From: Bacteroidota bacterium
GTDB taxonomy: Bacteria; Bacteroidota; Bacteroidia; AKYH767-A; OLB10
DNA length: 64,000 bases
Reading direction: 5' to 3'
Assembly (NCBI GenBank): GCA_031411335.1
Contig: JANOAX010000170.1
Span: forward strand, 2,306-66,305
Part shown: piece by piece, positions 10,309 to 42,033 of the stretch
Numbering within the stretch: the first letter of the stretch is position 1
How the letters are laid out: each line of letters opens with the position of its first letter
Translations under genes and position numbers: made by a program
Notes under the pieces: model-generated
The model's input: only the letters and a program-made list of their open reading frames with translations
Told to the model about the DNA's origin: nothing
Database searches by the model: none

Positions 10309-10314
10309 AAATTT

Positions 10315-11655
10315 ATGTCGACAATAACTAAATATCAAACAGCAAGCACCGCTTTCGTTCAAGAGGCGGAGGTGTTTGCCGATTTATACGGGAAAGATCA
10401 TCCAACGTTAGCGGCTATCCGTAAACAAGCGATGGTTGCTTTCTCAAATCGTGGTATCCCCACCATGAAGCATGAAGAGTGGAAGTATGTGAATTTAACT
10501 TCGATCGCGCAAACAGATTATCGTACTGCAAGTCCTGCCGACTCGCAAAAGTTATCAAAGTCCGACGCTGAACAATATCGTTTTGCTGGCAAGGATGCGA
10601 TTCTTTGTGTTATTGAAAATGGAAAGTTGAATGTAGCGGCATCTACCATGTCATCTATTCCTGCAGGTGTTCGCATTGGCAGTATCGATGATTTTAGTAA
10701 TGACGCTGACGTTATGTCGCACTTATTTACTCATGCTTCTTTTGAAGAGGAAGCGATGGTGGCATTGAATACGATGTTATGTTATTCACCTATCATCATT
10801 AAAGTGGATGCGAAAGTGAAATGCGACACGGTAATTCAATTGATCTTTGCAACGGTTCCTGGGGTTGATCCCTTATTGATTCCAGCACGTGTGTTAGTAG
10901 TAGCCGGAGAGCAATCGGAATTTACGGTGGTGGAGAGTTATCATACAGTAGGAGCAGGAGCATTAACTTTTAACAATGTGGTTTCTGAAGTCGTGGTTGG
11001 TAAAGCAGCTCGTGTGCATTATTCTAAAATTCAAGTGGAAGGCGATGAAGCCCAACACATCAATTATCATAAAGTGAACATGGCTCGCGATAGTTATCAG
11101 CATCTAACTACTTTAACATTGGGTGGAGCGATCGTTAGAAATAATTTAAACATCCGTTTGGATGACGAGCAAGTGAATGCTTACTTGAATGGATTATATG
11201 TATTGAATCAAAAGCAAGTAATCGATAATCATACGTTGGTTGATCATGCTATGCCGAATTGTTATAGTAATGAATTGTACAAAGGCATTATCGGTGATCA
11301 AGCACAAGGTGTATTCAATGGAAAAATTTGGGTGCGGGAAGATGCACAGAAAACAAATGCGTATCAATCAAACAAGAATTTATTGTTGAGCAATCAAGCT
11401 TCCATGAATACGAAACCACAGTTGGAAATTTATGCCGATGATGTGAAGTGTAGTCATGGTGCTACTACCGGACAACTGGACGATGAAGCTTTATTTTATC
11501 TCCGCGCTCGCGGTATTGGTGAAACCGTTGCACGATCGCTATTGAATCATGCTTTTGCTGCGGATGTGATTGAGCAAGTAGAGAATGAAGCGTTGCGTGA
11601 AAGTTTGATGCAATTGCTGGATGTGAAATTGTCGGCATTGCAGATCGAAACATAA
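10315..11655 (+). CDS. sufD: Fe-S cluster assembly protein SufD
   Basis: 446 aa. The SufB/D-family C-terminal region (...NLLLS...A...TKPQLEIYADDVKCSHGATTGQLD) follows sufC in operon order. Confidence 0.8.
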   Translation: MSTITKYQTASTAFVQEAEVFADLYGKDHPTLAAIRKQAMVAFSNRGIPTMKHEEWKYVNLTSIAQTDYRTASPADSQKLSKSDAEQYRFAGKDAILCVIENGKLNVAASTMSSIPAGVRIGSIDDFSNDADVMSHLFTHASFEEEAMVALNTMLCYSPIIIKVDAKVKCDTVIQLIFATVPGVDPLLIPARVLVVAGEQSEFTVVESYHTVGAGALTFNNVVSEVVVGKAARVHYSKIQVEGDEAQHINYHKVNMARDSYQHLTTLTLGGAIVRNNLNIRLDDEQVNAYLNGLYVLNQKQVIDNHTLVDHAMPNCYSNELYKGIIGDQAQGVFNGKIWVREDAQKTNAYQSNKNLLLSNQASMNTKPQLEIYADDVKCSHGATTGQLDDEALFYLRARGIGETVARSLLNHAFAADVIEQVENEALRESLMQLLDVKLSALQIET

Positions 11656-26905: not shown

Positions 26906-28057
26906 TTAGCGTAAAAGGCGATCAAGTGTTCTATTGAAGTCGAATTTATATTTTTCCCATTCCTCACCCGTAGCAGGACCTGAAAATCCGCTATGAACCT
27001 TTACAATATTCCCTTTTCGATCGACAAATAAGGTTGTCGGATAGGAGAAAAAATTTTGTATAGATGGTAAAACTTTTTGTACATCTCCTTTTTTATTGGT
27101 TCCTGCAATCAATAATGGATAGTGAATATTTAATCGCTTTTGCATTTTCATGACTCCTTTTTTTGCGATATTGAAATCGGATGAACGCTCAAATGCCAAT
27201 CCAAAAATAGTTAAACCTTCCTCTTTTCGAGCAGAATAAACACTGTCTAAAAAAATACTTTCGTCCATGCAGTTGGGGCACCAAGTTCCAAAGAGTTGAA
27301 TTATTTTCACATGATGACGGTACCCCACATCCGTTAGTGAAATCATATTGCTGTCTACATCTGGAAGTGTAAAATTAATTTCTCCAATGGCTTGAGTTAG
27401 GGTGGATGGATCCCTGAGTTGGATAGAATTATTTTTTTTGGCTCGAAAAGGTGCTTTGTAAGAATTCCCGGCGTAGTACATCCCTTGCATTTCTTCGCCT
27501 TGTACTTTTGCTAAATATAAATAAGCATGGGTTCCATCAAATACGCTTAGTTTTAAACTATCTTGATCAACGATTCCCTCTAAAAATCGATGATCGCCTG
27601 ATTCAGTTAAGAAGGTTCCGAATACTTTATTTCCATTTCTTTTAAATTTTCCGATGGCTAATGATGAATCGGCGGTACCTGCATCAAACCATGTTTCCCA
27701 AGATCCTTCTAATAGAATTGGAGAAGAAATGTTGGAGGAAACGGGAAAGCGATGTTCTACATTTTTAGTTGCCGTAAATGGAATACTAGTTGGCACTTTT
27801 CTTCCGTGGTTATACCAATTTCCAGTTAACGATTCATTCCCAACCTTCAATCGAAATTCGGAGTTGTAGAGTGGAAGTTTGATGAAGATGGAATCCCCTT
27901 GCATTGTAATTTCATCACAAATAATTCGTTCATCCGCATTGTGAATAATCATGACCGGTGTTCCATCGTGTTGCTTCAATTCAAATTGAAAAGGTAAGGA
28001 TGCATCAGGAAGTTGGAGGATTCCCAACCAGAATCCAAGGAGTAGGGAGATGGGCAT
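26906..28057 (-). CDS. Secreted TlpA-like thioredoxin-fold thiol:disulfide oxidoreductase with N-terminal extra domain
   Basis: C-terminal thioredoxin fold carries the active site FGTWCPNCMDE (WCxxC), AhpC/TSA/TlpA-like. N-terminal signal peptide. An N-terminal domain of ~240 aa has unknown function. Confidence 0.65.
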   Translation of the reverse strand: MPISLLLGFWLGILQLPDASLPFQFELKQHDGTPVMIIHNADERIICDEITMQGDSIFIKLPLYNSEFRLKVGNESLTGNWYNHGRKVPTSIPFTATKNVEHRFPVSSNISSPILLEGSWETWFDAGTADSSLAIGKFKRNGNKVFGTFLTESGDHRFLEGIVDQDSLKLSVFDGTHAYLYLAKVQGEEMQGMYYAGNSYKAPFRAKKNNSIQLRDPSTLTQAIGEINFTLPDVDSNMISLTDVGYRHHVKIIQLFGTWCPNCMDESIFLDSVYSARKEEGLTIFGLAFERSSDFNIAKKGVMKMQKRLNIHYPLLIAGTNKKGDVQKVLPSIQNFFSYPTTLFVDRKGNIVKVHSGFSGPATGEEWEKYKFDFNRTLDRLLR

Positions 28058-28067
28058 TTCTGTTTTT

Positions 28068-28604
28068 TTATGGAATGAATTTTACGTTGATTTCAAAGCG
28101 TGAAGGATCGGATAAAACCATATGTTGTTCTCCTCGGATGTGATATCCGAGAAGATGATTGTAGATGAGTTTTCTTTTTAACGAAAACCAAGGATTTGTT
28201 TTTTCAAATTCGATTTCAATTTTCTGAATTTGTTCATGTACGTAATCGATTTGCATTCTTCGTACTGGTGCTTTTTCATCTAATGCAACATATACAATTT
28301 GCAGAAGTGAGTCGGTTTGTACCGTGTCGCATTCGTATGCTAAATGCCAAGCTGGCTTATCTATATCACTTTCGAAAAAAGGTTTGAGTTCATGTTCCCA
28401 GTTTGGCGTATCAATATTTTTCGATTCTTTCACTTCGTCTCTAATGACTTCTTTTGCTAAACGCGTTTTTAACTTTTGATGTTGTTTAATTTCTTCATTC
28501 AAAAATGAGGAAATAGAAAAATAAGATGAATGTTGAACAATAGGTTCATCGGCACAACTTATTAAAAGAAAGAAAGAAATAATTAAAAGAAATAATTTTT
28601 TCAT
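28068..28604 (-). CDS. Hypothetical lipoprotein
   Basis: MKKLFLLIISFFLLISCADE is a lipoprotein signal. No recognisable domain. A 4-bp overlap with the upstream gene indicates coupling. Confidence 0.4.
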   Translation of the reverse strand: MKKLFLLIISFFLLISCADEPIVQHSSYFSISSFLNEEIKQHQKLKTRLAKEVIRDEVKESKNIDTPNWEHELKPFFESDIDKPAWHLAYECDTVQTDSLLQIVYVALDEKAPVRRMQIDYVHEQIQKIEIEFEKTNPWFSLKRKLIYNHLLGYHIRGEQHMVLSDPSRFEINVKFIP

Positions 28605-30718
28605 AAGTTAGCTCCCAAGCTTCGTGCTTTTTGGAAATAGAGATTTGCTTTTGCTGTGTCTCCAGTATTTTGCAATGTAACTGCTAAATTCATTAACGCT
28701 TTTACATTGTTTGGATCTACATCGACGGAGCGTTGAAAGTAGATGAGTGCACTATCAAATTTTTGAAGCATCACGTAGCAATTCCCACTGTTATTGAGTG
28801 CATCGGTATACGAAGCATTAATGCTTAACGCTAATCGATATTCTTTTAGTGCTTCTTGATATTTGCCCACCTTCGCCCAAGCATTTCCTTTGTTATAAAT
28901 GGCTTTTTGAAAATTAGGTTTTAAGGATATTGATTTGTCTAAGGCAATGAGCGCCTCTTCAAATTTTCCAGCTTCACTGAGATAAAGTCCGTAGTTATTC
29001 CAATTGTCGGGTTCATTGGGTTCGAGTTTTACTGCAGTGGAAAGATCTGCTAGTGCTTTTTCGTATTGACCATCGATTCCATAAGCAACACCCGCGCTGG
29101 AAAAACGACTTGCTTCAGTAAAGGCCTTATACGATCTTGCTTTTTCAAAACAAGCAATTGCATTTTTCGCATCTCTTTTATCTTTGTAAGCAACACCCAA
29201 ATTGTACCAAGCGTCATTGTAGTTCGGTAAAATGGAAACGCCTTTAGTAAGTTCTACAATGGCTTGATCCAGTAAATTATTTCTTTCTGTACTCCCTTCA
29301 GGTGCAAGTAAGGCTTCTTCTACGAGTAGTGTACTTCCCAACGCATATCGAATACGTGCACTCTCCGGAGAGATTTTTACATCATGCTGCAATAAAGTCA
29401 AATTGTTTTTCCAGTTTAAATTTCGGCTATACGTTCGTCCTGCAAAAAGTAATAGTACGATTAAACTCGGGACAAATAAAATATTTTTTGTGATGGATGG
29501 TATTGTTAAATGGGTCTCTAATTTTTTATTTTTCTTAGCTAAGATGGAATTGGCCATCGCACCAACCAAGACACATAAACCCAATGTGGGTGTAAAAATA
29601 AATCGTTCGGCCATGGTAGCTTCAATCAGGAAAAATACATTGCTTACGAGTGAAACGGTTCCTAAAAAGAAAAGGATTCCGAACGCTGAGGCGGAACGCT
29701 GAGGTAAACTTCTAATGCTGTATATTAATCCAAATGCCAATGCAATCAATGTCAAAAGCACACCTGGATTCGAAAAAGTAACATTGGGAATGGTATTGTA
29801 ACTGTAATCGAAAACTAAGGTAACAGGCAATACAAATAGATACAAATATTTTCCAAGAATAGAAATAGCCGTAGCAATTTGAGAAGAAAAATTAGTAGCT
29901 CCCACCATACTATTATTGACGAGCATCAATTGATAATCACTTCCCCCTTCTCCTAAAATGAGTTGCCGAATGATTAAGTAAAGAACTATAAGTCCCACAT
30001 ACATCGAACTCAACGAAATTGTTTTTTTCAAACTTTCATTCGTGAAACACCAAATAGCTAAAGGAATTACTCCGGCCCATGTTACCGAATTTTCTTTCGA
30101 AAGTAATCCGAGAAAGAAAACGATGAATGATGCGATGAGTGCGTTCATTTTTTTTGAATCGAGGTGCAACATCAAAAAGCGCAACGTTAAAATGCCGAAG
30201 AAAAAACTCAACAGTTCATCTCTACTTTTAATATTGGCAACAACTTCCGTATGTACTGGATGAAAAACCCAAATGAATGTTACCAGAAGTGGAATGAAAG
30301 GATGCATTTTGTGAAGGAGTGAACGCATCAAAGAAAATAAGACCACTGCTGTCAGCGCATAGATAAATACATTCATAAAATGCCCAAGCCAAGGTTGCTC
30401 TGGTGCGATGGCCCATTCAATAGCAAACATGGCTACGGAAATAGGACGGTACAATCCTTCTGTTCTGTCCCAATACCCTGCTCGATAGGAAGAGGTAAAA
30501 ATTTCATCTAACCCCGACAATCCTTGAACCGTGAATTTGTTGTTCTTAATTACTGTGGTATCATCTACTGTATAATCATGACCAAGAGTATTTGCATAAA
30601 GAAGGAAGGCACCTATTCCAATGAAAATGTATAGGAATTTTTTGTTGAGAGGCTTCTCTGCGGAAACACTTGAAGTAGGAGTGTTGGTGTTAGGTGATTT
30701 TTTCTGTTTCACTTTCAT
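28601..30718 (-). CDS. Polytopic membrane protein with C-terminal TPR repeats (TMTC/PMT_2-like, DUF1736-type)
   Basis: The N-terminal ~450 aa hold multiple TM helices, including the LYANTLGHDYTVDDTTVIKNN motif typical of TMTC-like putative glycosyltransferases. The C-terminal ~250 aa are TPR repeats (AWYNLGVAYKD..., AIYNKGNAWAKVGKYQEALKEY...). Confidence 0.55.
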   Translation of the reverse strand: MKVKQKKSPNTNTPTSSVSAEKPLNKKFLYIFIGIGAFLLYANTLGHDYTVDDTTVIKNNKFTVQGLSGLDEIFTSSYRAGYWDRTEGLYRPISVAMFAIEWAIAPEQPWLGHFMNVFIYALTAVVLFSLMRSLLHKMHPFIPLLVTFIWVFHPVHTEVVANIKSRDELLSFFFGILTLRFLMLHLDSKKMNALIASFIVFFLGLLSKENSVTWAGVIPLAIWCFTNESLKKTISLSSMYVGLIVLYLIIRQLILGEGGSDYQLMLVNNSMVGATNFSSQIATAISILGKYLYLFVLPVTLVFDYSYNTIPNVTFSNPGVLLTLIALAFGLIYSIRSLPQRSASAFGILFFLGTVSLVSNVFFLIEATMAERFIFTPTLGLCVLVGAMANSILAKKNKKLETHLTIPSITKNILFVPSLIVLLLFAGRTYSRNLNWKNNLTLLQHDVKISPESARIRYALGSTLLVEEALLAPEGSTERNNLLDQAIVELTKGVSILPNYNDAWYNLGVAYKDKRDAKNAIACFEKARSYKAFTEASRFSSAGVAYGIDGQYEKALADLSTAVKLEPNEPDNWNNYGLYLSEAGKFEEALIALDKSISLKPNFQKAIYNKGNAWAKVGKYQEALKEYRLALSINASYTDALNNSGNCYVMLQKFDSALIYFQRSVDVDPNNVKALMNLAVTLQNTGDTAKANLYFQKARSLGANL

Positions 30719-31586: not shown

Positions 31587-32192
31587 TTATAGTTCTAATA
31601 GTCCTTTGGAACAACTAGCTCTCGAGCCCGAGTCATTCTGATGTTTCCATCTTCGTTTACCATTTTTATCTACAATTACTTCACCTCTTATCCAACGATT
31701 ATTGTCTGTTGAATGTTTTTCCCATTTTACCTGAATAGGAATATGTAATTCCATAGCAGCATCATCACGATAAACATCAGCAAAGAAAATTTCAGTGTAT
31801 TGATTGACGCAATTGCCAACACATTTTTCTAATACTTTTGCACCGGCATTTTTGGCTACGGCCTCTACGAAGGATGCCGTTTCATTGTCATTTACATCAA
31901 ATTTTCCTTTAAACACAGATGGGATATTTTCTGACTCAGCGCTTGAATTTGATTTAGGAATTGCGGCGAAAGTATCTTCCGATCCATTCGCATATTTAAT
32001 TTTAGTGAGGTCACTTAAGGGAACTGTATAAGTAGGACCTTCTAAATTGTCAGTTTTTTTGTACTTTACGAATTCAGGGGTTAGTTCTAAAATTTTTGCT
32101 TTCACAGTTCGCCCATCATTTAAGGTGATCACATCTTGTGAAAAACCAATGGTGGAAACAAATAAAATTGCAATTAGAATAATTTTTTTCAT
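31587..32192 (-). CDS. Hypothetical secreted protein
   Basis: Signal peptide MKKIILIAILFVSTIGFSQ. 201 aa. It is the last gene of the minus-strand run that starts at the pyrophosphatase. Confidence 0.4.
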   Translation of the reverse strand: MKKIILIAILFVSTIGFSQDVITLNDGRTVKAKILELTPEFVKYKKTDNLEGPTYTVPLSDLTKIKYANGSEDTFAAIPKSNSSAESENIPSVFKGKFDVNDNETASFVEAVAKNAGAKVLEKCVGNCVNQYTEIFFADVYRDDAAMELHIPIQVKWEKHSTDNNRWIRGEVIVDKNGKRRWKHQNDSGSRASCSKGLLEL

Positions 32193-32251
32193 AGGGATTT
32201 AACGTATTTTAAGTGTTTAAAATTAAGCTTAATTTTTAATTTAGGCAAGTT

Positions 32252-33211
32252 TTATTTTATTTCTGACAAATTCCAAACATTAAGATTTCCATCAAATCGA
32301 CTAGCAACTAGACTCTTACCATCAGGAGAAAATTCTAATTGTAGAATTGCTTGGCCACCAATGGATAATCTGAATTTCTCTTGTTGTGTGGTAACATCCC
32401 ATACTATTAAAACGCCATCTACGGATGCACTCGCAATTAGTTGATCGTTGGGAGAAAGTGAAAGTGCAGCAATACCATCTTTATGTCCTGTTAAAGTATG
32501 AAGTAGTTTTCCGGTTTTAAAGTCCCAAATTTTAATGGTCTGATCAAAACTTCCGGTTATTAAGGTTTTCATATCCTTCGTTATTTTTGCTCCATAAACC
32601 CAATCCGTATGCCCAGCAAATGTTTTGACGATATTACCTGTTTTCAGATCCCAAACTTTTACAGTATTAGCATGATTGCAAGAAATCACATAATTACCAT
32701 CTGGTGTAAATATGGCATCGTCAGTCCAAATAGATTCTGACAATTCAATAACTTGTTTTAAGGTTGAGCTTTCCCAAATAACAAGTGCATTGTCTTTCCA
32801 ACTACTGCTGACAATGAATTGGTCGTCAGGTGAAAAATTTCCCGATTTCACATAAGTGGCATGTGCTTTTTTCTTACTTGTGATTCTTTTGAAATTAGAG
32901 CTTTTGTAAATTTGTAAACATTGCATACTGCCAATTGAAATTTTGTCACCTTTATGATTGTAATGAAGTGCAGTAATGGGATCATCTCCGAAAGAAAATT
33001 CTTTGATGACCTTGTAATTTTGCGCGACATCCCACACTTTTAATGCGCCATCTTTACTACCACTAATCAATGTTTTTCCATCTGGTGAAAAACTGCAAAC
33101 ATTAACGCCCGACTTATGTCCAGTTAATGTGAGCGGTTGTAATTCCTGTGCCATCATGACCGTTGGAAATATGAAGAGTAGAAGAAAATAGTTTATTGCT
33201 TTTTGAATCAT
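32252..33211 (-). CDS. Secreted WD40-repeat beta-propeller protein
   Basis: Signal peptide, then ~7 WD40 repeats (LTGHKSGVNVCSFSPDGKTLISGSKDGALKVWD; FAGHTDWVYGAKITKDMKTLITGSFDQTIKIWD; LTGHKDGIAALSLSPNDQLIASASVDGVLIVWD). Confidence 0.7.
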   Translation of the reverse strand: MIQKAINYFLLLFIFPTVMMAQELQPLTLTGHKSGVNVCSFSPDGKTLISGSKDGALKVWDVAQNYKVIKEFSFGDDPITALHYNHKGDKISIGSMQCLQIYKSSNFKRITSKKKAHATYVKSGNFSPDDQFIVSSSWKDNALVIWESSTLKQVIELSESIWTDDAIFTPDGNYVISCNHANTVKVWDLKTGNIVKTFAGHTDWVYGAKITKDMKTLITGSFDQTIKIWDFKTGKLLHTLTGHKDGIAALSLSPNDQLIASASVDGVLIVWDVTTQQEKFRLSIGGQAILQLEFSPDGKSLVASRFDGNLNVWNLSEIK

Positions 33212-33213
33212 GA

Positions 33214-34122
33214 TTATTTGGATAAGTGAACATTGGAAATAAATGTACTAAAGGAGATCATTTCAGATTTTAATTGATCGTTGTAATTTCTTTTTCTGAT
33301 ATAATTTTTTGGTGGTACAATATATCCAGATTGATTGGCTCCACCAAAATAGAAATATAAAAATAAATAGACACCTGCCGTGGCGGCAGTGATGTAATTT
33401 GCTTGTAGCACATTGTAAACGCCAAATGTGGCACTTCCACTCGTTAATAAAAGACTTAAAAATCCTTTTGAATAATTTCCGTTGTAGGCTTGGCCTAATC
33501 CCGGAAAGATCAATGACAACGTTTTTGCTTTATTGATACTCCTTAACTTGGGTTGGAGGGATGGGTCGTAAATGGAATCTAATGTTTGCTTCAGCACTAT
33601 TTTATTTTCTGCAGTGAACATCTTATTATTTTGAATGTAATCACTCATTACTTGATGGGCTTGATTCCATTTTCCTAATTCATCTAATATAAAAGTGTAA
33701 AGCAAAACGGAATTTAACTGAGTGTTAGTATGGAATGATTCAAGGTTAAATGAAGGCAAGATGTTTTTTTCGGCGAGCTCGAAATTGTCGCTGAGGTAAT
33801 AACCTAATGCTTTTTGAAAATAAATTTCTTGTTTTAAACTATCACTTAAGACTGATAATTCAATACGGGAAAGTAGACTTCCAATTTGTTCAAATTTTTG
33901 CTGTGCTTTTAAACAATTTGTTTTGGACAGTAGTGTAGTAGCTAAAAAATAGGCATCTCCCGGACGCTCATAAATAGCGCGCTCATACATCAATGATGCT
34001 TGATCAAATTGCTGTATTGCAAATAAACTGTCGGCCGATTCCAGCGTTTGTGTAAACGCTTTAGTGGAAAATACGGTCAACAGGAACATGCAAGCCCACC
34101 CTGATGTTATGCTGTATCTCAT
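33214..34122 (-). CDS. Hypothetical secreted/membrane protein; C-terminal LIxPGLGQxYNG domain (DUF5683-like), N-terminal TPR-like region
   Basis: Signal peptide MRYSITSGWACMFLLTVFSTKAFTQ. C-terminal ...LSLIFPGLGQAYNGNYSKGFLSLLL...GVYLFLYFYFGG is hydrophobic. It is a paralog of the upstream gene. The DUF name is from memory. Confidence 0.4.
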   Translation of the reverse strand: MRYSITSGWACMFLLTVFSTKAFTQTLESADSLFAIQQFDQASLMYERAIYERPGDAYFLATTLLSKTNCLKAQQKFEQIGSLLSRIELSVLSDSLKQEIYFQKALGYYLSDNFELAEKNILPSFNLESFHTNTQLNSVLLYTFILDELGKWNQAHQVMSDYIQNNKMFTAENKIVLKQTLDSIYDPSLQPKLRSINKAKTLSLIFPGLGQAYNGNYSKGFLSLLLTSGSATFGVYNVLQANYITAATAGVYLFLYFYFGGANQSGYIVPPKNYIRKRNYNDQLKSEMISFSTFISNVHLSK

Positions 34123-34942
34123 CTACTTTTTCTTGATAAACAATTTGCGCACTGATTGAGCTTCCCCATATTCCACCAATATAGAAGAGTGAAAATAAGG
34201 AACCAAAGATATAGAACTGTACATTTTTGAATCCACCATGGAGGTAGTTCTCCGCTGTTATAATTCCAAGTGGTACTACTTTTAAGAAGGAAGCCAAGGC
34301 TTGGCCTGGCAAACCCGTATACACCTTCCCTAATCCTGGAATTAGGGCCGATAATGCTCCGGCTACAAACCCTGATTTCTTTTTCATGTTTTGTAGGAGG
34401 TAACTATAGTCACTTAAATATTTTAATTCAGTACGAATGGTTGAATCTTCTGGAAAAAATCCGGTAGCTAAAAGATCAAACTGTTCATAGTCTTTTTGAA
34501 GTAAGGATAATCCCGCTAATTCAAATATGCGTAACTCATAAAGTATTCCCGATTCTGCTTCGGGAGCATCGTAAATTTTTTGATAAGCTAAGTCGTATTT
34601 ATGTTCATCCATCTCCATTAAACCTGAAGTATAGGCAGATGGTATTTTAAAAACAGAATAGATGCTTACCAAATCAAAATAATGACGCGCCTTGATTGTA
34701 TTTTTAAAATCAGCGAATAAAGTTCCACTGGCAAAAGCCACAGAGTCGCGAAAATCTTGTGTAAAAGCAATCGTATCGTTTAGTAGTTGGTTACTATAAA
34801 ATTCTAAATCATCGATCTGTTTACTTTCACCTAAATGAAAAATAAAATTCAACTCATCCCGGAGTTGAATGGTATCTTCTTGTGCGAAACCGATGAATGG
34901 AAACAAAAAACACATCCATAAAACGATGAATTTTATTTTCAT
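34061..34942 (-). CDS. Hypothetical secreted/membrane protein, paralog of 33214..34122
   Basis: Signal peptide MKIKFIVLWMCFLFPFIGFAQ. C-terminal ...LSALIPGLGKVYTGLPGQALASFLKV...SLFSLFYIGGIWG. It overlaps the next gene by 62 nt in another frame. Confidence 0.4.
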   Translation of the reverse strand: MKIKFIVLWMCFLFPFIGFAQEDTIQLRDELNFIFHLGESKQIDDLEFYSNQLLNDTIAFTQDFRDSVAFASGTLFADFKNTIKARHYFDLVSIYSVFKIPSAYTSGLMEMDEHKYDLAYQKIYDAPEAESGILYELRIFELAGLSLLQKDYEQFDLLATGFFPEDSTIRTELKYLSDYSYLLQNMKKKSGFVAGALSALIPGLGKVYTGLPGQALASFLKVVPLGIITAENYLHGGFKNVQFYIFGSLFSLFYIGGIWGSSISAQIVYQEKVDEIQHNIRVGLHVPVDRIFH

Positions 34943-35493
34943 TCGTGCGTATGTTTCTTTAATCGATAGTAGGAAGGGAAATCGATAATGTTTCCTTTTT
35001 CATTCATCCGAAGGGCATGAATTTGTTTTATCGTCGATTTAGTGCAACGCGTTAATCGATCTGCACTAAGTGCTAAACCTTTTATCAATCCAAATTCTTG
35101 TATGCTTTGCTTACTGAATGCTGAACATGAAACTTCGTAAGGGCAATCGGCAGCAATTTGTGAAGAGATCACCGCTTGGTAGGTATAGAGCATCCCACCA
35201 AAAAACAGACTCACGGGATTATATTTTATAATATTTCTTTTTCCTACAATTAAAAAACTTGGTTTCTTTTTAATGGGGTAAGGATTTTTCCTTTCGTGGG
35301 TTGCCATTAATTCAAAATCGCTTTTTGGATTATCGTTAGTCGAGGTGGCAACATTTAGTAAACTATCTTCTGATTCAATTGAAAAATAAGAAACATCTGC
35401 AAAAGCCATCGAAGCAGTAGATAAAAACAATACTCCCATCAACAGGAAAAATGTTGACCATTTCAGAGGAGATATTGAATAAATTTTAACCAC
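34939..35493 (-). CDS. YidD-like (membrane protein insertion efficiency factor family) protein with N-terminal extension
   Basis: YTYQAVISSQIAADCPYEVSCSAFSKQSIQEFGLIKGLALSADRLTRC matches the YidD/haemolytic-domain core (Y.YQ..IS...C.F.PSCS.Y...A...G...G..L...R..RC). At 184 aa it is about twice the usual length, with a signal/TM helix at the N-terminus. Confidence 0.5.
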   Translation of the reverse strand: MVKIYSISPLKWSTFFLLMGVLFLSTASMAFADVSYFSIESEDSLLNVATSTNDNPKSDFELMATHERKNPYPIKKKPSFLIVGKRNIIKYNPVSLFFGGMLYTYQAVISSQIAADCPYEVSCSAFSKQSIQEFGLIKGLALSADRLTRCTKSTIKQIHALRMNEKGNIIDFPSYYRLKKHTHE

Positions 35494-35585
35494 TATACAA
35501 AGTTAAGGATTTTAGAGGAAGCACGATCGAAAAACAGAAAAGCCTGCGATCGAATCACAGGCTCTTCATTATTAGGAAGTAAATA

Positions 35586-38288
35586 TTATTTACAGCAATT
35601 TTCTTTTTGACCCTTGCAAGCCATGCCTTTGTCTTCACACATCTTCATGCAAGCCGCATCACAACCATTGGCACAACTGTGGTTGGCATCCGATTGATGC
35701 ATCGGACATGGTTTTCCATTTCCGCATTCGATGCCTTTTTCTTTGCACATTTTCATGCAATCATTATCGCAACCTTTAGCAGAGCTGGAATGCATCGGGC
35801 AAGGTTTTCCATTTCCGCATTCAATGCCTTTTTCTTTGCACATTTTCATGCATTCACTATCGCAACTTGCTTTTTTGTTTTTGCAACAATCAGCACCTGT
35901 GATTTTTTCACAAGAAGACGATTTCATATGACATTTGCCATTTTCCATCTTAACACAGTCGGTCGAATCGCATTTTCCTTCAGCCATCCATGCTGCGCAA
36001 GTAGCTGAATCAATCACGCAATTTCCTTCTGCATCCATATCACAGGCACTTTCCATGTCCATATGACATTCCATCTTGTCTTTGCTTGCACAACAATCGT
36101 CAGCACCCATTCCTGAACCTACACCATGACCACCATTCACGGCGATTAATGGAGCAATGGTTAATCCTACTAGAGAAGAAAGTTTAATTAAAATATTCAT
36201 CGACGGACCTGAAGTATCTTTAAAAGGATCACCTACGGTATCACCTACAACAGCCGCTTTATGTGGTTCTGATTTTTTGTAATACATAACGCCGTCAATG
36301 TTCACTCCTTTTTCAAATGCTTTCTTTGCATTATCCCAAGCACCACCAGCGTTGTTTTGGAAAATTGCCCACAGCACTCCGCTCACGGTTACACCAGCCA
36401 TATACGCACCTAATGCTTCAGCACCCATTACTAATCCAACAATAATTGGAGTTACAATTGTGATTACGCCCGGTAACATCATTTCGCGCAAAGCAGCCTT
36501 CGTAGAAATTTCTACACAACGACTATAATCTGGTTTTCCGGTTCCTTCCATAATACCTGGAATTTCGCGGAACTGACGACGTACTTCATTCACCATTTCC
36601 ATAGCCGCTTTACCAACAGAATTCATAGCCAATGCAGAGAATACTACAGGAATCATTCCACCAATAAATAAGGCAGCTAATACTTTCGCATCGAAAATAT
36701 TGATTCCGTTAATGCCAGTCAATGTTACATAAGCAGCAAATAATGCTAATGCAGTTAATGCAGCAGAAGCAATCGCAAATCCTTTTCCGATAGCGGCGGT
36801 TGTATTTCCTACTGAATCTAAAATATCTGTTTTCTCACGTACATCAGCAGGAAGTTCACTCATCTCTGCTATACCACCTGCATTATCTGCAATGGGTCCA
36901 AAAGCATCAATTGCTAATTGCATAGCAGTAGTTGCCATCATCGCAGACGCTGCAATTCCTACTCCGTAAAATCCAGCTAATGCATAAGCGCCCCAAATAG
37001 CACCGGCAAATAAAATTACGGGGAATGCAGTAGAAAGCATTCCGGTTCCAAGTCCTGCAATGATATTTGTTGCAGCTCCTGTTGCCGATTTTTCTACAAT
37101 GTTTAATACAGGTCTTTTATTTAATCCTGTATAAAATTCTGTGATGTATGAAATAGCAGCTCCTACAAACATTCCGATGACTACCGACCAAAACACATTC
37201 ATGGAAGAAGTGTAAAGCGTTGTGAATTCACCACCTGAAAATGCGCTCATCGTCATTTGGTCAGGAAGCATCATATCAATTAAGAAATAAGAGGCGATCA
37301 AAGCAATGATGATGGAAACCCAGTTTCCGCGATTTAATGCTGATTGTACTGAATCAGTAGTAGCAGCAGCCGTTTCTTTGATACTCACTAACCACGATCC
37401 AACGATTGAAGCAACAATACCAAAACCAGCAATACATAATGGTAATAGAATGGGACCAATTCCGCCAAACGCATCTTCTATACCACCCATGTCGCGAATG
37501 ATATAATTTCCTAATACCATCGATGCAAGAACAGTCGCCACATAAGAACCAAATAAATCGGCACCCATACCAGCAACGTCACCTACGTTATCACCTACGT
37601 TATCTGCAATCGTAGCTGGATTACGTGGATCATCTTCAGGAATTCCAGCTTCTACTTTTCCTACTAAGTCAGCACCTACGTCAGCAGCTTTGGTATAAAT
37701 ACCACCACCTACACGAGCAAAGAGTGCAATCGACTCAGCACCTAATGAGAATCCTGCAAGTACTTCTAATACTTGAGTCATCTGTTCTGTGCTTGTCATT
37801 TGACTTCCCATGAAAAAACTGTAGAGGAAAATGAACATTAAACTTAATCCAAGTACTGCTAATCCAGCAACACCTAAACCCATTACCATTCCGCCCGAGA
37901 AAGAAACTTTCAATGCTTTCGCAAGAGATGTACGTGCAGCTTGTGTCGTGCGAACATTTGCTTTAGTAGCAACGCGCATTCCGCTGTAGCCTGCAATGGC
38001 ACTAAATACACCACCACAAATAAATGCAGCAACGATTAAGATGTGTGAGCTGGCTACTACTTGACTTAATATTCCTAAGCCAATACTTGCAATAACCATA
38101 AAGATGGCGAGTATTCTATATTCTGATTTCAAGAATGCCATTGCGCCTTCTGCAATTGCGGTTGAAATGGTTTGCATTTTTTCATCACCCGCATCTTGTT
38201 TATTCACCCAACTGGATTTAATAAACATGTAGATTAATCCAAGTACGCCAAGGGCAGGTACGATATATACGAAATTTTCCATAGTCAT
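35586..38288 (-). CDS. hppA: Membrane-bound H+/Na+-translocating pyrophosphatase (K+-dependent type) fused to a ~175-aa Cys/Met/His-rich C-terminal tail
   Basis: Hallmark [19 protein letters not shown] plus DNVGDNVGD and 15-16 TM helices. [10 protein letters not shown] carries Ala at the K+-dependence position. The C-terminal tail from ...[10 protein letters not shown] to the end contains ~40 Cys and repeated [21 protein letters not shown] units. Confidence 0.85.
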
Positions 38289-39139: not shown

Positions 39140-39176
39140 AAAAAGGCCCCTGAAGATTCAAGAGCCTTGTCCATAA
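39140..39176 (-). terminator. Candidate rho-independent terminator for 39190..42033
   Basis: The minus-strand read aaggctcttgaatcttcaggggcctt forms an imperfect ~7-bp stem and is followed by TTTTTTT, 15-50 nt downstream of the stop. Confidence 0.35.
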
Positions 39177-39189
39177 TCAAATTTTTATG

Positions 39190-42033
39190 TTAATGTTGAA
39201 CGGTAAATTTTGATGTACTTATTTTCCCTTGATGGATGATTTGAATAAAATAAATTCCATTTGCTAAATGCTGTACTGGTATCGCTAAATTTTGTTGATC
39301 CAATAATCCTTTCTTCAAACTACTTCCTTTGGTGTCGATGATATTAAATGAAGTAGATGCATTCGCCGATGCAAATTGAATAGTTAAGTATTCATTCGCA
39401 GGATTTGGATAAATAGAAATAACAACTCCATCAATTTCTTGTAATCCGGTACAAAGATCAATGGTGATCGTATCCGATGCGCTGGCTAAGCAGAAGTTGG
39501 TATCAACATACATATAGGTTACTTCATAACTTCCCGGCGGCAAGGAGGAAGGTTCAAACTGACTTCCGTTCACACCTAAACCAGACCAAAATCCACCGCT
39601 CGGATTTTCTCCAAATAAATCGATGAATGACCAATTGATACAAACTGTAGTATCTAATGTTAACGTTACTAACGGTAATGGATGTACGATAAGATGAGTA
39701 TAGATGGTACTATCGCATCCATTGGATGAAGTAGATAAATCGATGAAGTCACCATCGGCATACTGCCATGTACCTGCTAAGAACAAACTATCGCCTTGAC
39801 AAATTGAAACATCTACCGAGTCATAAGCTGCTGCAAAGTAATCTAACGAAGTATGAACAATACTATCGCATCCTTGTGCACTAATTAATGAATCGGTATA
39901 TAAACCCGCTAACGTCTGCCACGCACCTTCTACAAATAAACTATCACCGAAGCAGATGGAAACTACTAATTGTTCGTCGTACACGGGGTAAAACTGTAAG
40001 CGTGTGGTATAACTACTGTCACAACCATCAAGGGTTGAATATACATTGCTATAATCACCAGGTATCGTTTGCCAAACGGAAAGGATGAATGCACTATCTC
40101 CCGGACAAATATTAACACTATCTAAAAACAGATAGGAAGGATTTACCGTGATGGATTGTGTAGTTATCGCTCCAGTTCCGCATTGATTGCTGGCTTGAAC
40201 AGTGATATTTCCTGAGGTGGCCGAGGCACCTAAAGTTAAAGTAGCAGAAGTGTCACCAGAACTCGTTAAGATTCCATCGGTCCCTGTGAAATTCCAGGTA
40301 TATGTACTCATTCCATCAACTGGAGTAATGGTATAAACTTCGATGCTATTTTGACAAACCGTTGTGTTTCCCGAATTTAAAACGGGTAATGCCGGTGTAT
40401 CTCCAATTTGAAGTACTGCTTCCAATGAAGTATCGGGAGGAGCACAAACTCCAGAAACAATACAACGATATAAATTATTTGACAAAGCGATGGATGGATT
40501 CGTAATGGTTAATGTATCATTATTAAATCCAGTGTAAGGCACTGCATTGGGCACGTTCGTATAACCGGAACCGTTATTGACTTCCCAACGATAACTAATA
40601 GCAGAGCCGTAAGCATTGATGGCAAATGAAGTTGAATTTCCGACGCAAATACTATCTGATACAGGTTCTAACGTAATGGTCGGTGTTCGATCTACCACAA
40701 TAAATACGGAATTAGAAATAGCAGGTGGAGCGCAAGTTCCCGTCACAATACAACGGTAATTGGTAAGATGTAATGAATACGGAGTAGCAGTGATGAGTAA
40801 AGCTGCTCCGGTGGTATTCGAATAAGGTGGCGTATTGGTTAAGTTGATCCAACCCGAACCATTATCGTATTGCCATTGAAAAGTTAATCCCGCACCAACA
40901 GTACTCACGCTGAAAGAAACATTTAATCCTTCGCAAATAGAGCGTGATGGGGTTTGTGCCGTAATAGCAGGTAGACGAATTAAACTAACAGTTGCGGAGT
41001 TACTAATTGCTTGTGGAGGCGCTTGTCCAGAAACAACGCAACGATACACACTTGCATTTAAAATAAAGGGTGCCCCAGTGATGTGAAGTGTATCAGTAGT
41101 GCTTCCACTGAAGGGAACAGTGTCCAATACATTGTTCCAAGTTCCGCTAATGTTTCGCTGCCATTGATAGGAAGTAGCATTGGTTGCCACCACGGAAAGA
41201 TGAATGGTACTCAACTCACATACATTTACTGATATAGGTTGTTGTGTAATTTGTGGAACAGGTAAAGCACATCCAGAAAAAGTGCAAGGAACAGGTAGCT
41301 GAAAATTATTTGGAATAGGAGGAAGAGAAGTAGTATCCAAATTCCAATTCAACCCATCGGTTAAAGCGGTTAATAACGAAAGTGTGTCACCCGTAGTGAT
41401 GGAGCAATTGTATTGAGCATTGTTAGCGCCGGTAGAAAGAGCAAGTCCAAGCGTGGAAAGTGTTGAAGGCAATGTGGATTTAATGGATGTAAGGTCACAA
41501 CTATCTAGAACCAAATCCCAAGTACGATTTATACTAATAGCAGCAATGAATTCGGGAGCACTTATGGTTCCTTGATAAGCGAAAACTTGATCACCATTTC
41601 CGTTGAGACTCACGTACACATTGCTATTATTGAAGGTGCCAAGAATGGGTGTTACCGTTCCCAAATTTGCAGTCAGCGCTTTTCGGCAATTGATGCTTAT
41701 TTGTGTTCCACAATATAAAACTGTTGTGCTATGCCACTGAATAATTCCATCAGAAAGAGCTCCCGTGTTTGCACCACAAGCATTCGGTGTTTGAAAAGTA
41801 TTAGCGTCGGTCCAGCCGAAATCAGTAAAATTGACCACTGTATTTACATCAATGTCTTTTAACAACACAAATGAAATAACATCATCTTGTGTTACGTTGT
41901 TATCATCGACAGTAATGTATCCTGAAAAGGAAATGTCGCCGGCTTGAAGTAGAGTTTGTGCTGAACTATAGGTGGTGCTGAATAAAGTAGTAAGCAATAA
42001 GATGAATTTGGGGAGGAGATTAGTTTTGATCAC
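39190..42033 (-). CDS. Large T9SS cargo protein with Ig-like repeats (adhesin-like)
   Basis: Signal peptide MIKTNLLPKFILLLTTLFSTTYSSAQ. Repeats with a Cys pair and W..QY.NG.G pattern (CVVSG..PP..SN.A.V). C-terminal CTD: ISIYPNPANEYLTIQF...GIYFIQIIHQGKISTSKFTVQH. Confidence 0.55.
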   Translation of the reverse strand: MIKTNLLPKFILLLTTLFSTTYSSAQTLLQAGDISFSGYITVDDNNVTQDDVISFVLLKDIDVNTVVNFTDFGWTDANTFQTPNACGANTGALSDGIIQWHSTTVLYCGTQISINCRKALTANLGTVTPILGTFNNSNVYVSLNGNGDQVFAYQGTISAPEFIAAISINRTWDLVLDSCDLTSIKSTLPSTLSTLGLALSTGANNAQYNCSITTGDTLSLLTALTDGLNWNLDTTSLPPIPNNFQLPVPCTFSGCALPVPQITQQPISVNVCELSTIHLSVVATNATSYQWQRNISGTWNNVLDTVPFSGSTTDTLHITGAPFILNASVYRCVVSGQAPPQAISNSATVSLIRLPAITAQTPSRSICEGLNVSFSVSTVGAGLTFQWQYDNGSGWINLTNTPPYSNTTGAALLITATPYSLHLTNYRCIVTGTCAPPAISNSVFIVVDRTPTITLEPVSDSICVGNSTSFAINAYGSAISYRWEVNNGSGYTNVPNAVPYTGFNNDTLTITNPSIALSNNLYRCIVSGVCAPPDTSLEAVLQIGDTPALPVLNSGNTTVCQNSIEVYTITPVDGMSTYTWNFTGTDGILTSSGDTSATLTLGASATSGNITVQASNQCGTGAITTQSITVNPSYLFLDSVNICPGDSAFILSVWQTIPGDYSNVYSTLDGCDSSYTTRLQFYPVYDEQLVVSICFGDSLFVEGAWQTLAGLYTDSLISAQGCDSIVHTSLDYFAAAYDSVDVSICQGDSLFLAGTWQYADGDFIDLSTSSNGCDSTIYTHLIVHPLPLVTLTLDTTVCINWSFIDLFGENPSGGFWSGLGVNGSQFEPSSLPPGSYEVTYMYVDTNFCLASASDTITIDLCTGLQEIDGVVISIYPNPANEYLTIQFASANASTSFNIIDTKGSSLKKGLLDQQNLAIPVQHLANGIYFIQIIHQGKISTSKFTVQH

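Follow-up and report, generated by a model that had tools for sequence, protein, structure and literature searches.

A Modular Cysteine-Rich C-Terminal Extension Fused to Membrane Pyrophosphatases of an Uncultured Bacteroidota Clade

Membrane pyrophosphatases (M-PPases) are regarded as 16-helix pumps complete in themselves, and, to our knowledge, the extra domains mentioned in reviews of these enzymes are rare ones only, for example an OmpA-like domain. The hydrolytic center of M-PPases is cytoplasmic, with the gate (K16.50) and the exit channel oriented toward the periplasm (PMC5150537). Position-based rules are available for the signatures of the M-PPase subclasses (PMC10897367, PMC6882861), among which Ala rather than Lys at position 12.46, within the sequence GNTT-A-A, marks the K+-dependent enzymes (PMC10897367). 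The OmpA-like domain occupies the same C-terminal position in another M-PPase (PMC11210485) as the extension described here. Outside this family, CC motifs in the C-terminal tail of the plant pump HMA4 confer nanomolar affinity for Zn (PMC6255694), and the periplasmic proteins Csp1 and NGO1701 are Cu(I) stores built from Cys-lined helices (PMC12510493).

Here, we describe an M-PPase gene from the window, by which we mean the whole 64,000-nucleotide stretch of Bacteroidota DNA that was analyzed. A single unbroken ORF (35586..38288, minus strand) encodes 900 amino acids, comprising a complete M-PPase and a 172-aa tail. The reading frame runs on past the last transmembrane helix (TM16) and a linker through 35589..36104 before reaching a TAA stop codon, as the initial annotation had noted, putting the tail at ~175 residues. 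The features relevant to our analysis are as follows:

36141..38288, minus strand: M-PPase core, aa 1–716, with 16 TM helices (PF03030; alignment to 4A01 and 4AV3)
36105..36140, minus strand: Gly-rich linker after TM16, aa 717–728 (translation; AF2 pLDDT below 50 in both models)
36045..36104, minus strand: tail leader, 20 aa, with conserved DCC and KMEC motifs (alignment; modeled as disordered)
35910..36044, minus strand: module A, aa 749–793, 45 aa, modeled as β-hairpin, helix, β-hairpin, helix (AF2)
35865..35909, minus strand: spacer, 15 aa, with the second CC pair (translation)
35772..35864, minus strand: B unit 1, 31 aa (TRF period 93)
35679..35771, minus strand: B unit 2, 31 aa, the duplicated copy (93% nucleotide identity to unit 1)
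35589..35678, minus strand: B unit 3, 30 aa, a diverged copy with the terminal CC (translation)
35537..35567, minus strand: hairpin and T-run resembling an intrinsic terminator (14-pair stem with 6 GC pairs, then TGTTTTT), starting 19 nt beyond the tail stop codon
35607..36008, plus strand: shadow ORF of 133 aa, lying opposite the tail and not a gene (inside the conserved minus frame)
28601..30718, minus strand: TPR705, a polytopic membrane protein whose C-terminal part carries TPRs (possibly associated downstream trio)
28068..28604, minus strand: hyp178 (downstream trio)
26906..28057, minus strand: ResA/TlpA-like exported protein of the thioredoxin fold, bearing a WCPNC motif, the third member of the trio (Pfam, NCBIfam, PDB)

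The Pyrophosphatase Core and Its Membrane Topology

The PF03030 (H_PPase) profile spans aa 15–710 of the window protein (E = 1.4e-263) and is covered from position 1 to 644 of 645, NCBIfam NF001955 scores the 900-aa protein at 1210 bits, and the catalytic Asp/Lys motifs of PF03030 are all found, identifying the protein as a full-length member of the family. The core aligns with few gaps to residues 139–760 of 766 in VrPPase (4A01), and to TmPPase (4AV3), and the signature residues read from this alignment are E185 (E5.43), G6.53, A6.57, A12.46, N16.46, and K16.50. E185 stands opposite VrPPase S235, which is position 5.43 by counting from R242 (5.50), and, with Gly at 6.53 and Ala at 6.57, the Glu is at neither of these two positions. 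The Ala 12.46 motif, in turn, is shared by the window protein and 156 of 156 relatives, placing them in the K+-dependent subclass, such that the initial assignment of the core as a K+-dependent M-PPase is borne out both by this residue and by the full-length PF03030 match. Because the combination of E5.43, G6.53, and A12.46 is the Flavobacterium johnsoniae-type signature, the core is probably a K+-dependent H+ pump of this type. The NCBIfam label on the window protein reads “sodium-translocating”, and, judging from the same signature, the use of this label for pumps with the E5.43 H+-type signature is a probable systematic misannotation.

The final hydrophobic segment of the protein is TM16 (aa 699–717). 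Because TM16 alone separates the cytoplasmic catalytic loop from the tail, the tail lacks any hydrophobic segment of its own (maximum KD 0.51), and the tail begins where the solved PPases end in the alignment, the tail should be non-cytoplasmic by homology to these structures, that is, on the periplasmic side and beside the ion exit, the initial annotation having likewise placed it in the periplasm. The tail starts ~27 residues past the gate Lys16.50, on the helix lining the exit channel. At this same position, sister PPases bear YceI and FKBP_N/FKBP domains, which are periplasmic elsewhere.

An In-Frame Fusion Conserved Across Genomes and Under Selection

The region contains a tandem repeat, and frameshifts are found close to the tail in three long-read MAG contigs (L005, L007, and L013), as might be expected if the extension were an artifact, be it an assembly chimera, a lost stop or frameshift joining a small gene to the PPase, or junk generated by the repeat. 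This reading is effectively refuted by several observations. The PPase and the tail share one reading frame in 28 of 29 independent species-level Bacteroidota MAGs (GTDB species representatives), the lone exception (L007) being a nanopore contig with a frameshift, and the in-frame junction is also found on many short-read contigs (JGI, ENA, NCBI, and Logan). The initial annotation had pointed to a stop codon or a frameshift where PPase and tail meet, or a separate small gene in related genomes, as possible signs of such an artifact; independent assemblies have neither stop nor frameshift there except in the indel-prone nanopore contigs, and no separate tail gene is present at any of the 29 genome loci. 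Similarly, an exhaustive profile search of 1.84 billion representatives returned only PPase C-termini or contig-end fragments and no free-standing copy of the tail, and each short protein match that was checked lies at the end of a contig. A word-indexed homology search with the tail alone gave three matches and missed tails that the full-length search showed, and is thus too insensitive for this purpose. Looking for the tail in other PPases, as had also been proposed, yields the same tail family on ~45 full-length database proteins.

The tail also evolves as a coding sequence. The dN/dS ratio is 0.05 in comparison to both L003 and L006, there are no non-synonymous changes in 172 codons in comparison to L001, and purifying selection extends to tail residues other than Cys and Met. 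The GC content of the tail (42%) is similar to that of the core (41%), and tail indels comprise whole codons (93 bp), both of which argue against an artifact. We conclude that the tail fusion is real, conserved, and selected. As the minus frame is conserved in 28 genomes and under purifying selection, the plus-strand ORF lying wholly inside it is a shadow ORF, in agreement with its initial dismissal as an artifact.

Architecture and Variation of the Tail

The window tail contains 29 Cys (rather than the ~40 initially reported), 16 Met, 5 His, and 24 Lys, such that Cys accounts for 16.9% of the tail compared to 0.4% of the core (3 Cys in 728 aa), and Cys and Met together for ~26% (45 of 172 residues). 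The initial description of the tail as rich in Met and His is therefore apt for Met, but not for His, and of the CxxC and CC pairs that it listed, three CC pairs are present but no CxxC; the remaining spacings comprise seven Cx3C and no CxC. Within the leader, the opening Cys of DCC shows a conservation of 90% or more in the family alignment. Module A has invariant Gly, Asp, Ser, Trp, and two Cys residues, and is modeled by AF2 with a pLDDT of ~90 from the tail alone, with the same secondary structure in the full-length model, the mean pLDDT of which is 54 and which was built on a shallow, near-identical alignment.

The B units follow the consensus C-x3-C-M-K-x-C-K-E-x-G-[IVM]-x-C-G-x-G-K-x-C-P (80 units). 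Each unit has five Cys, three of which line one face of a helix (positions i, i+4, and i+8) ahead of a G-x-x-C-G-x-G-K-x-C-P-M-H loop, and Met residues neighbor Cys (CMKMC, PCPMH). AF2 models these units with low confidence (pLDDT 55–70) as three isolated 9-residue helices that do not form a bundle, although the helices might pack together upon metal binding. The conservation of Gly, Pro, Lys, and Glu in addition to Cys hints that the units have a defined fold, unlike a plastic metallothionein. The tandem duplication initially described as a 75-bp repeat is present, but with a period of 93 bp (31 codons) at 35697..35866 (TRF score 305, 1.8 copies, 93% matches), the two near-identical blocks being 77 nt each with 5 mismatches. 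B unit 2 is at most 84% identical at the nucleotide level to any unit of other genomes, compared to the 93% it shares with unit 1, and is missing in L003, L005, L006, and P0001. The duplication is thus lineage-specific and fairly recent, in keeping with the initial view of its age.

More broadly, the tail is modular, consisting of the 45-aa fold and zero to three copies of the five-Cys unit, with three in the window protein. Module A is present in duplicate in P0026, P0038, and P0039, P0024 and P0025 have each lost both of its first two Cys, and the number of B units differs even inside a single 90%-identity cluster (841–897 aa). Of the 149 distinct tails carried by the closest relatives, 125 are rich in Cys, and CC occurs within ~5 residues of the C-terminus in 45 of these 125, including tails of other types. 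The family-A tails (n = 60) comprise 14.6% Cys, 8.7% Met, 3.7% His, 11.6% Lys, 0.5% Arg, 0.6% Leu, and no Phe, and therefore have no ordinary hydrophobic core; their Cys spacings are CxC 0, CxxC 3, Cx3C 230, Cx6C 322, and Cx7C 216. Even Cys counts are found in 25 of 60 family-A tails and in 73 of 125 tails overall (p = 0.07), which is not a significant parity bias. Some sister tails have His-rich ends (e.g., HDHGDHSH and HEHEGHEHH), and other sister PPases carry at this position tails of unrelated sequence, Cys-free tails, the YceI or FKBP domains, or, in some cases, almost no tail. A Cys/Met/His-rich extension is the rule in one large, environmentally widespread, uncultured Bacteroidota PPase clade (the MAGs come from activated sludge, lakes, and rivers, among other sources), in which the tails are modular and under selection, vary in copy number, and are exchanged through recombination.

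The tail alone has no Pfam or NCBIfam match at E ≤ 1, including to the metallothionein, DUF326, and Csp models, and six tails of other types likewise have no match in either database. A Foldseek search of the tail model against the PDB gave no fold match (best E 2.2), and the best hit in a profile search against PDB sequences was a chance match to an RNase (E 0.18). The tail would thus appear to be new, with no known homologue in the databases searched, as part of an accessory-domain variant of a known pump. The initial suggestion that the fusion is unprecedented holds insofar as we found no published description of Cys-rich or metal-binding M-PPase C-terminal extensions in the literature searched, but not at the level of sequences, as such tails are the clade's rule and the proteins have already been deposited in NCBI, JGI, and ENA under generic names.

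The product of the ResA-like gene in the downstream trio matches Redoxin/AhpC-TSA in Pfam, ResA/DsbE/TlpA in NCBIfam, and ResA in the PDB. The trio (26906..30718) lies downstream of the tailed PPase in 21–25 of 29 family-A loci, directly adjoining it in distant ones, with the reductase gene itself downstream in 21 of 29. This linkage is not seen for the type-B and type-C Cys-rich tails, and the association may therefore be plain synteny or phylogenetic inertia; it stands as an observation on family A, the type-D locus being uninformative, with no genes listed beyond its PPase. No metal-homeostasis genes adjoin the window gene, and no methionine sulfoxide reductase is encoded near it.

Possible Functions of the Tail and Comparison with Known Systems

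We tentatively read the window protein as an E5.43 H+-PPase with a genuine modular periplasmic tail that most likely binds or buffers soft metals. The tail would be displayed in the periplasm where TM16 leaves the ion-exit channel, with Cys thiolates, Met thioethers, and His binding soft metals at the outer face of the inner membrane, Cu(I) in the first instance, and possibly also Zn or Cd. The PPase dimer, being abundant and stable, would serve mainly as a membrane anchor, the metal capacity would be set by the number of B units, and the neighboring ResA/TlpA-like reductase may hold the tail thiols reduced. Such binding, like reduced thiols and a part for the reductase, is an inference; it is plausible in view of the placement of Met beside Cys, the Cys/Met/His/Lys-rich composition of the family-A tails, the His-rich ends of sister tails, the lack of an even-Cys bias, the five-Cys units, their variable number, and the downstream ResA-like gene. 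We note, however, that several observations point the other way. CxC and CxxC are the usual thiolate-cluster motifs, and are found zero and three times, respectively, in the 60 family-A tails. The periplasm is normally oxidizing, such that many of the tail Cys may be disulfides. Furthermore, module A is modeled confidently without metal, and the tail has neither Pfam, NCBIfam, or PDB similarity to metal-binding families nor adjoining metal-homeostasis genes.

A rival reading, which we consider only somewhat less likely, gives the tail no part in metal binding and sees in it a structural or adaptor domain stapled by disulfides, in which module A and the helical Cx3Cx3C units are cystine-stabilized mini-folds similar to helix-hairpin peptides. 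They would cap the PPase dimer rigidly on its periplasmic side or offer a platform for protein-protein interaction, possibly cross-linking protomers or tethering partners. The predicted periplasmic location and the predominance of helical Cys spacings over CxC and CxxC would suit such a domain, as would the ligand-free fold of module A, the conservation of Gly, Pro, and Lys in the units, and the ordinary folded periplasmic domains that other PPases of the clade bear at this site, and the joint loss of the first two Cys of module A (C1 and C2) is as expected for a disulfide pair. While the odd Cys count of the window tail (29) could be met by an inter-protomer disulfide in the homodimer, the absence of a parity bias across 60 tails and the five Cys per unit fit this reading poorly, disulfide scaffolding leaves both the Met enrichment and the His-rich sister tail ends unexplained, and the conserved neighbor is a reductase-type (ResA-like) thioredoxin rather than an oxidase.

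The position of the tail at the mouth of the exit channel, so soon after the gate Lys16.50, also invites the idea of a regulatory sensor, through which periplasmic redox state, metal load, or pH would tune or gate H+ pumping and PPi hydrolysis, and the flexible linker, the lack of free-standing tails in the searches, and the conserved DCC just after TM16 are in line with this. We nevertheless consider it improbable: as the tails of sister PPases at this position are so varied, an anchoring site fits better than a conserved regulatory interface, variable unit copy number is not typical of a regulator, and the poor full-length AF2 model is uninformative about contact between tail and core. Less probable still is a sacrificial oxidant sink that scavenges HOCl, H2O2, or chloramine, protects the pump, and is recycled by the ResA-like reductase. 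While the high Cys and Met content, habitats that include activated sludge, lakes, and rivers, and the conserved thioredoxin-fold neighbor would accommodate such a role, there is no methionine sulfoxide reductase nearby, the precise conserved motifs and the folded module argue for a specific structure, and purifying selection also acts on residues other than Cys and Met.

Returning to soft-metal binding, a more far-reaching form of this reading, which we regard as doubtful, is that the tails constitute an undescribed class of membrane-tethered periplasmic Cu(I) stores, functionally analogous to Csp1 but unrelated to it in sequence, and held in the reduced state by the co-located ResA/TlpA-like reductase. 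Pumping could acidify the surroundings of the tails, placed as they are at the proton exit, and thereby free metal from thiolate and imidazole ligands, in which case pyrophosphate energy would be coupled to the buffering or delivery of metal in the periplasm. A weaker, though still new, reading is simply that most Bacteroidota F. johnsoniae-type H+-PPases carry such tails, which are absent from the M-PPase literature searched. If the tail binds metal, it would represent a new family of extracytoplasmic metal-buffering domains and the first accessory function tied to an M-PPase, with a bearing on how Bacteroidota of wastewater and fresh water deal with copper and zinc. A tail that proves to be disulfide-based would instead provide a new small cystine-stabilized fold and a handy marker of periplasmic oxidative folding in Bacteroidota.

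In comparison to known systems, the window core shares E5.43, Gly 6.53, Ala 6.57, Ala 12.46, the 16 TM helices, and all catalytic motifs with the F. johnsoniae-type H+-PPase, to which it is likened by signature residues; the window protein carries in addition, as a possible difference, the 172-aa Cys-rich, predicted periplasmic tail. PPases fused to OmpA-like (Paucibacter, PMC11210485), YceI, or FKBP modules similarly carry a soluble module after TM16 of a canonical pump, on the non-cytoplasmic side; however, those modules belong to known Pfam families, whereas the window tail is unmatched, poor in hydrophobic residues, ~17% Cys, and built from repeats. The initial label “metallothionein-like” is apt in terms of composition: as in the eukaryotic metallothioneins and SmtA/BmtA, Cys is abundant, Lys greatly exceeds Arg, aromatic and aliphatic residues are few, no ordinary fold is matched, and size varies by unit duplication. 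It is misleading in other respects, since metallothioneins are free cytosolic proteins with ~30% Cys, whereas the window tail should be periplasmic and membrane-tethered, with 17% Cys, abundant Met, and a conserved Trp-containing α/β module. A true metallothionein is rejected, with CxC 0, CxxC 0, and CC 3 in the window tail, and no match to a metallothionein family in Pfam.

The Csp copper stores offer a further analogy, with Cys at i and i+4 (and i+8) along helices, auxiliary Met and His ligands, and an extracytoplasmic location, making Cu(I) storage by the tail plausible by analogy (PMC12510493). Membership of the Csp family (DUF326/TAT_Cys_rich) was rejected, with no match at E ≤ 1 in Pfam or NCBIfam. 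AF2 models, at low confidence, short single helices and loops rather than a four-helix bundle. Exported Csp is a soluble Tat substrate, whereas the window tail belongs, as its C-terminal portion, to a polytopic membrane protein with which it would be exported. Finally, the plant P1B-ATPases HMA4 and HMA2 are likewise ion pumps with long C-terminal tails bearing CC motifs, and a terminal His stretch is found in sister PPase tails; however, the tail of HMA4 is cytosolic and binds the transported metal, whereas the window tail would lie in the periplasm, on a pump predicted to move H+ driven by PPi.

The Tailed Pyrophosphatase Gene

A single unbroken open reading frame of 900 aa occupies 35586..38288 on the minus strand. 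Its residues 15–710 match Pfam PF03030 (H_PPase) end to end (E = 1.4e-263), NCBIfam NF001955 matches the frame at 1210 bits, and past the last hydrophobic helix the frame continues into a Cys-rich tail.

Features of the gene, with the basis of each in parentheses
aa 699–717, minus strand: last hydrophobic helix (hydropathy)
between last helix and tail, minus strand: Gly-rich linker, 12 aa (translation)
35589..36104, minus strand: tail, 172 aa in frame, ending at a TAA stop (translation)
N-terminal part of tail, minus strand: leader with conserved DCC and KMEC (alignment A2)
35910..36044, minus strand: module A, 45 aa, the part of the tail predicted to fold (alignment A2 and AlphaFold2)
35772..35864, minus strand: B1, repeated Cys-rich unit 1 of 3
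35679..35771, minus strand: B2, unit 2 of 3
35589..35678, minus strand: B3, unit 3 of 3, diverged
35567..35537, minus strand: hairpin with 14-bp stem and T-run, 3' of the frame (sequence)

A second terminator-like hairpin lies upstream, at 39168..39143. The Cys-rich in-frame extension and internal repeat reported in the initial annotation are both present at the site it gave, and the observation is real, although its numbers and motifs needed correction. The tail contains 29 Cys (not about 40), 16 Met, 5 His, 24 Lys, and 29 Asp+Glu, with only three Cys in the 728-aa core; the two parts are similar in GC content (tail 42%, core 41%). CC occurs three times and Cx3C seven times, with no CxC and none of the CxxC pairs previously claimed. 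Tandem Repeats Finder returns one array (35697..35866, period 93 bp, 1.8 copies, 93% matches), and two 77-nt blocks differ by 5 mismatches in blastn; the near-identical block of about 75 nt thus stands, but the true period of the duplication is 93 bp (31 codons).

In the HMMER alignment with 4A01, the PPase of Vigna radiata (query 82 to 720, target 139 to 760 of 766), the tail starts where the solved membrane pyrophosphatase (M-PPase) stops. E185 aligns with VrPPase S235, to which our own count from R242 = 5.50 assigns position 5.43; the core also has Gly at 6.53, Ala at 6.57 and 12.46, and both N16.46 and K16.50. The K+ dependence of M-PPases is defined by A12.46, and the unusual K+-dependent H+-PPase of Flavobacterium johnsoniae is marked out by a semi-conserved Glu at 5.43 (PMC10897367, PMC6882861). 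Among 156 near-full-length relatives, E5.43 is found in 155 and G6.53 and A12.46 in all. Judged by sequence, the core is an M-PPase of the K+-dependent subclass and matches the F. johnsoniae H+ type in its signature; this E5.43/G6.53/A12.46 combination makes the pump probably an H+-PPase despite the names "sodium-translocating" and "K+-stimulated sodium pump". NCBI, JGI, and NCBIfam call both it and its relatives (database proteins P0004–P0123) sodium-translocating, which is probably a systematic misannotation.

A tail-derived pattern scan, with one genome per GTDB species, gave 29 loci, all from Bacteroidia or Bacteroidota MAGs of activated sludge, lakes, and rivers. Tail and core share one open frame in 28 of these, as expected of the in-frame fusion originally proposed; only in L007, a nanopore "tig", do they part, with the core in frame 3 and the tail in frame 2. 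A frameshift or stop at the junction is effectively ruled out by the 28 in-frame loci. We note that the nanopore loci L005 and L013 carry indel damage similar to that of L007, and that the frameshifts in the PPase or tail frame of these contigs (L005 ~10400, L007 ~9970–10001, L013 ~9170) are likely homopolymer indel errors in A-rich Lys codons rather than biology. A full-length search retrieved ~45 database proteins of 800–934 aa with a tail of the same sequence family (family A), from JGI, ENA, NCBI, and Logan assemblies. An exhaustive search of the tail profile against 1.84 billion cluster representatives gave only 10 hits, and the sequence upstream of them, wherever visible, is a PPase C-terminus. 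The two short hits looked up are fragments, since each starts 20–25 nt from a contig end (contigs of 573 and 799 bp). Neither this search nor the 29 loci yielded a free-standing tail gene, the arrangement in relatives that would contradict a fusion.

The tail has a dN/dS (Nei–Gojobori) of 0.050 against L003 and 0.047 against L006, shows no amino acid change against L001, and differs in length by whole codons. Because the tail is under selection (dN/dS ~0.05) and changes length in this manner, the plus-strand frame 35607..36008 is a shadow of its coding region, and was rightly dismissed as an artefact.

Tail Architecture, Duplication, and Spread

The anatomy of the tail was derived from an alignment of 37 tails (A2), regex module extraction, and unit statistics. 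Module A has an invariant Gly, Asp, Ser, Trp, and two Cys, and AlphaFold2, supplied with this alignment, predicts a β-hairpin, helix, β-hairpin, helix order (pLDDT ~90), which recurs in the poor full-length model; P0026, P0038, and P0039 have two copies. Its D-S-(A/T/S/L) motif is invariant (IDSATC at 36004..36012, aa 760–762; also aa 774–776). The general O-glycosylation motif of non-cytoplasmic Bacteroidota proteins is D-S/T-A/L/V/I/M/T (PMC12871550, PMC8550257), and the tail may be glycosylated here, although a helix N-cap would explain the motif equally well. The B units number 0 to 3 per tail and have a consensus opening (G)C-[DE]-x-[DA]-C-M-K-x-C-K-E-x-G-[IVM]; each is modeled as a 9-residue helix with Cys at i, i+4, and i+8, followed by a loop (pLDDT 55–70). 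Tails often end [DE]CC[KH].

DNA identity between B1 and B2 is 93%, while either is at most 84% identical to units in other genomes, and B2 is missing from L003, L005, L006, and P0001, so that the duplication, already described as recent, is lineage-specific and fairly recent. L001 has the B1/B2 pair; L004 (83%) and L009/L010 (71%) have older pairs of their own. Unit number changes repeatedly, with one 90%-identity cluster covering 841–897 aa. Against L001, the core DNA is 91–97% identical (dS 0.26) and the tail 99–100% (9097..9612 in L001; 3 synonymous differences), and the DNA downstream of the PPase is unrelated. L003 is just as close in the core (dS 0.27) and retains downstream synteny, but its tail (10001..10426) is only 80–83% identical (dS ~1.6). 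From these identity profiles, recombination appears to exchange tail alleles older than the surrounding gene.

Of 149 distinct tails, taken from the closest near-full-length PPases, 125 are Cys-rich (at least 8% Cys), 18 are other extensions, and 6 are essentially absent. Family A accounts for 60 tails, and at least three further Cys/His-rich types exist, for which no Pfam match was found; examples outside family A are CDMSKCxxMTxEECAAxCDS..., MEKCHGHEMMMDCHGGGH...DCCKK, and MKDCCAKP...TWDD...GHDHSxH. One isolated case, possibly coincidence, is L038 (188..6205), where the gene immediately upstream of a PPase carrying another kind of Cys/His-rich tail (P0065) encodes a 2005-aa T9SS-secreted protein with a Cu-binding_MopE domain (PF11617). 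Separately, the taxonomic labels of four MAG records look wrong: under the titles Bifidobacterium sp., Bifidobacterium breve, or Chitinophaga pinensis, these records contain the Bacteroidia-type locus (PPase identity 84–96% for L008, L011, and L012, and 63% for L027).

Membrane Side and Gene Neighborhood

M-PPases have their hydrolytic centre on the cytoplasmic side; located toward the periplasm are the coupling funnel, the gate (K16.50), and the exit channel (PMC5150537). TM16 alone stands between the catalytic loop and the tail, and with a 19-residue hydropathy maximum of 0.51 the tail has no extra TM segment. The non-cytoplasmic placement originally proposed is upheld on these grounds, and by homology to solved M-PPases the tail would be periplasmic. 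At the same position sister PPases have a fused YceI (P0073, P0102) or FKBP_N+FKBP (P0119), domains that are periplasmic in other proteins, and a Paucibacter M-PPase with an OmpA-like domain has been described in a 2024 review (PMC11210485). In tail-less or Cys-free relatives (L030–L034, L039) a YceI gene lies 13 bp past the PPase stop or overlaps it, which shows a possible origin of such fusions. It looks as if periplasmic domains are captured preferentially at the PPase C-terminus.

Downstream genes, all between the PPase and the trio except the last entry
within 31587..35493, minus strand: YidD-domain protein, 184 aa, with 100-aa N-terminal extension
within 31587..35493, minus strand: reading frame, 293 aa
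within 31587..35493, minus strand: DUF5683-like protein, 302 aa
within 31587..35493, minus strand: WD40 β-propeller, 319 aa, with signal-like N-terminus
within 31587..35493, minus strand: reading frame, 201 aa
26906..30718, minus strand: trio of TPR protein, hyp178, and ResA/TlpA-like protein (gene order in 29 family-A loci)

The polytopic TPR protein, with a sub-threshold TMTC_DUF1736 match, is downstream of the PPase in 25 of the 29 family-A loci, and hyp178 (178 aa, no family) in 16. It is followed by the exported thioredoxin-fold ResA/TlpA-like gene (WCPNC; 26906..28057; 21/29), whose 383-aa product has an N-terminal 220-aa domain of no known family. In the most distant family-A loci the trio adjoins the PPase, the TPR protein being the next gene. 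The five genes that separate them in the window are present in eight close loci and missing from distant ones. Upstream, at 39190..42033 (minus strand), is a 947-aa T9SS cargo protein (PKD-like and Ig-like domains, Por_Secre_tail), found in 13/29 related loci with 74–88% identity in the closest.

Possible Functions and Known Systems

Pfam, NCBIfam, PDB sequences, and Foldseek against PDB were all negative for the tail. Our best, though tentative, reading of its sequence is that the tail binds or buffers soft metals (Cu(I)-type), with the PPase as anchor. The family-A composition (C 14.6%, M 8.7%, H 3.7%, K 11.6%, R 0.5%, F 0, L 0.6%) excludes an ordinary hydrophobic core, Met stands beside Cys, and sister tails have His-rich ends. 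Each unit has five Cys, even Cys counts (25/60) show no even-number bias, B-unit copy number is variable, and the ResA/TlpA-like gene recurs downstream. Precedents are the periplasmic helical Cys-lined Cu(I) stores Csp1 and NGO1701 (PMC12510493) and the di-Cys C-terminal tail of plant HMA4, which confers nanomolar Zn affinity (PMC6255694). Against metal binding, CxC is absent and CxxC occurs 3 times in 60 family-A tails, versus 230 Cx3C and 322 Cx6C, and the B units conserve Gly, Pro, and Lys as well. No metal genes lie near the PPase in the window, and the reductase linkage was not found with the type-B and type-C tails; for the type-D tail no genes were listed downstream of the PPase.

The periplasm is an oxidising compartment, which also counts against metal binding, as do the confident modeling of module A without metal and the joint loss of its first two Cys in P0024 and P0025. 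A purely disulfide-stabilised structural or adaptor domain is a somewhat less likely alternative, against which the lack of an even-number bias in the Cys counts speaks. It is quite possible that the tail is mixed, with module A disulfide-bonded and the B units metal-binding. That the tail senses redox state or metal and thereby tunes the pump seems improbable, and a role as oxidant sink more improbable still.

The initial interpretation keeps its fusion, membrane side, and duplication, but not "metallothionein-like". Public databases already contain tailed PPases, generically named, and our literature search, of partial coverage, found no paper on such M-PPase tails. The tail resembles metallothioneins in composition only: CxC and CxxC are missing from it, and motif and family tests fail. 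With no DUF326 match and no Tat export, and with isolated 9-residue helices rather than a bundle in a model of low confidence there, it is probably not a Csp, and it differs from the HMA4 extension in compartment and in logic. The gene is best filed as a known pump, an M-PPase, with a new accessory domain.
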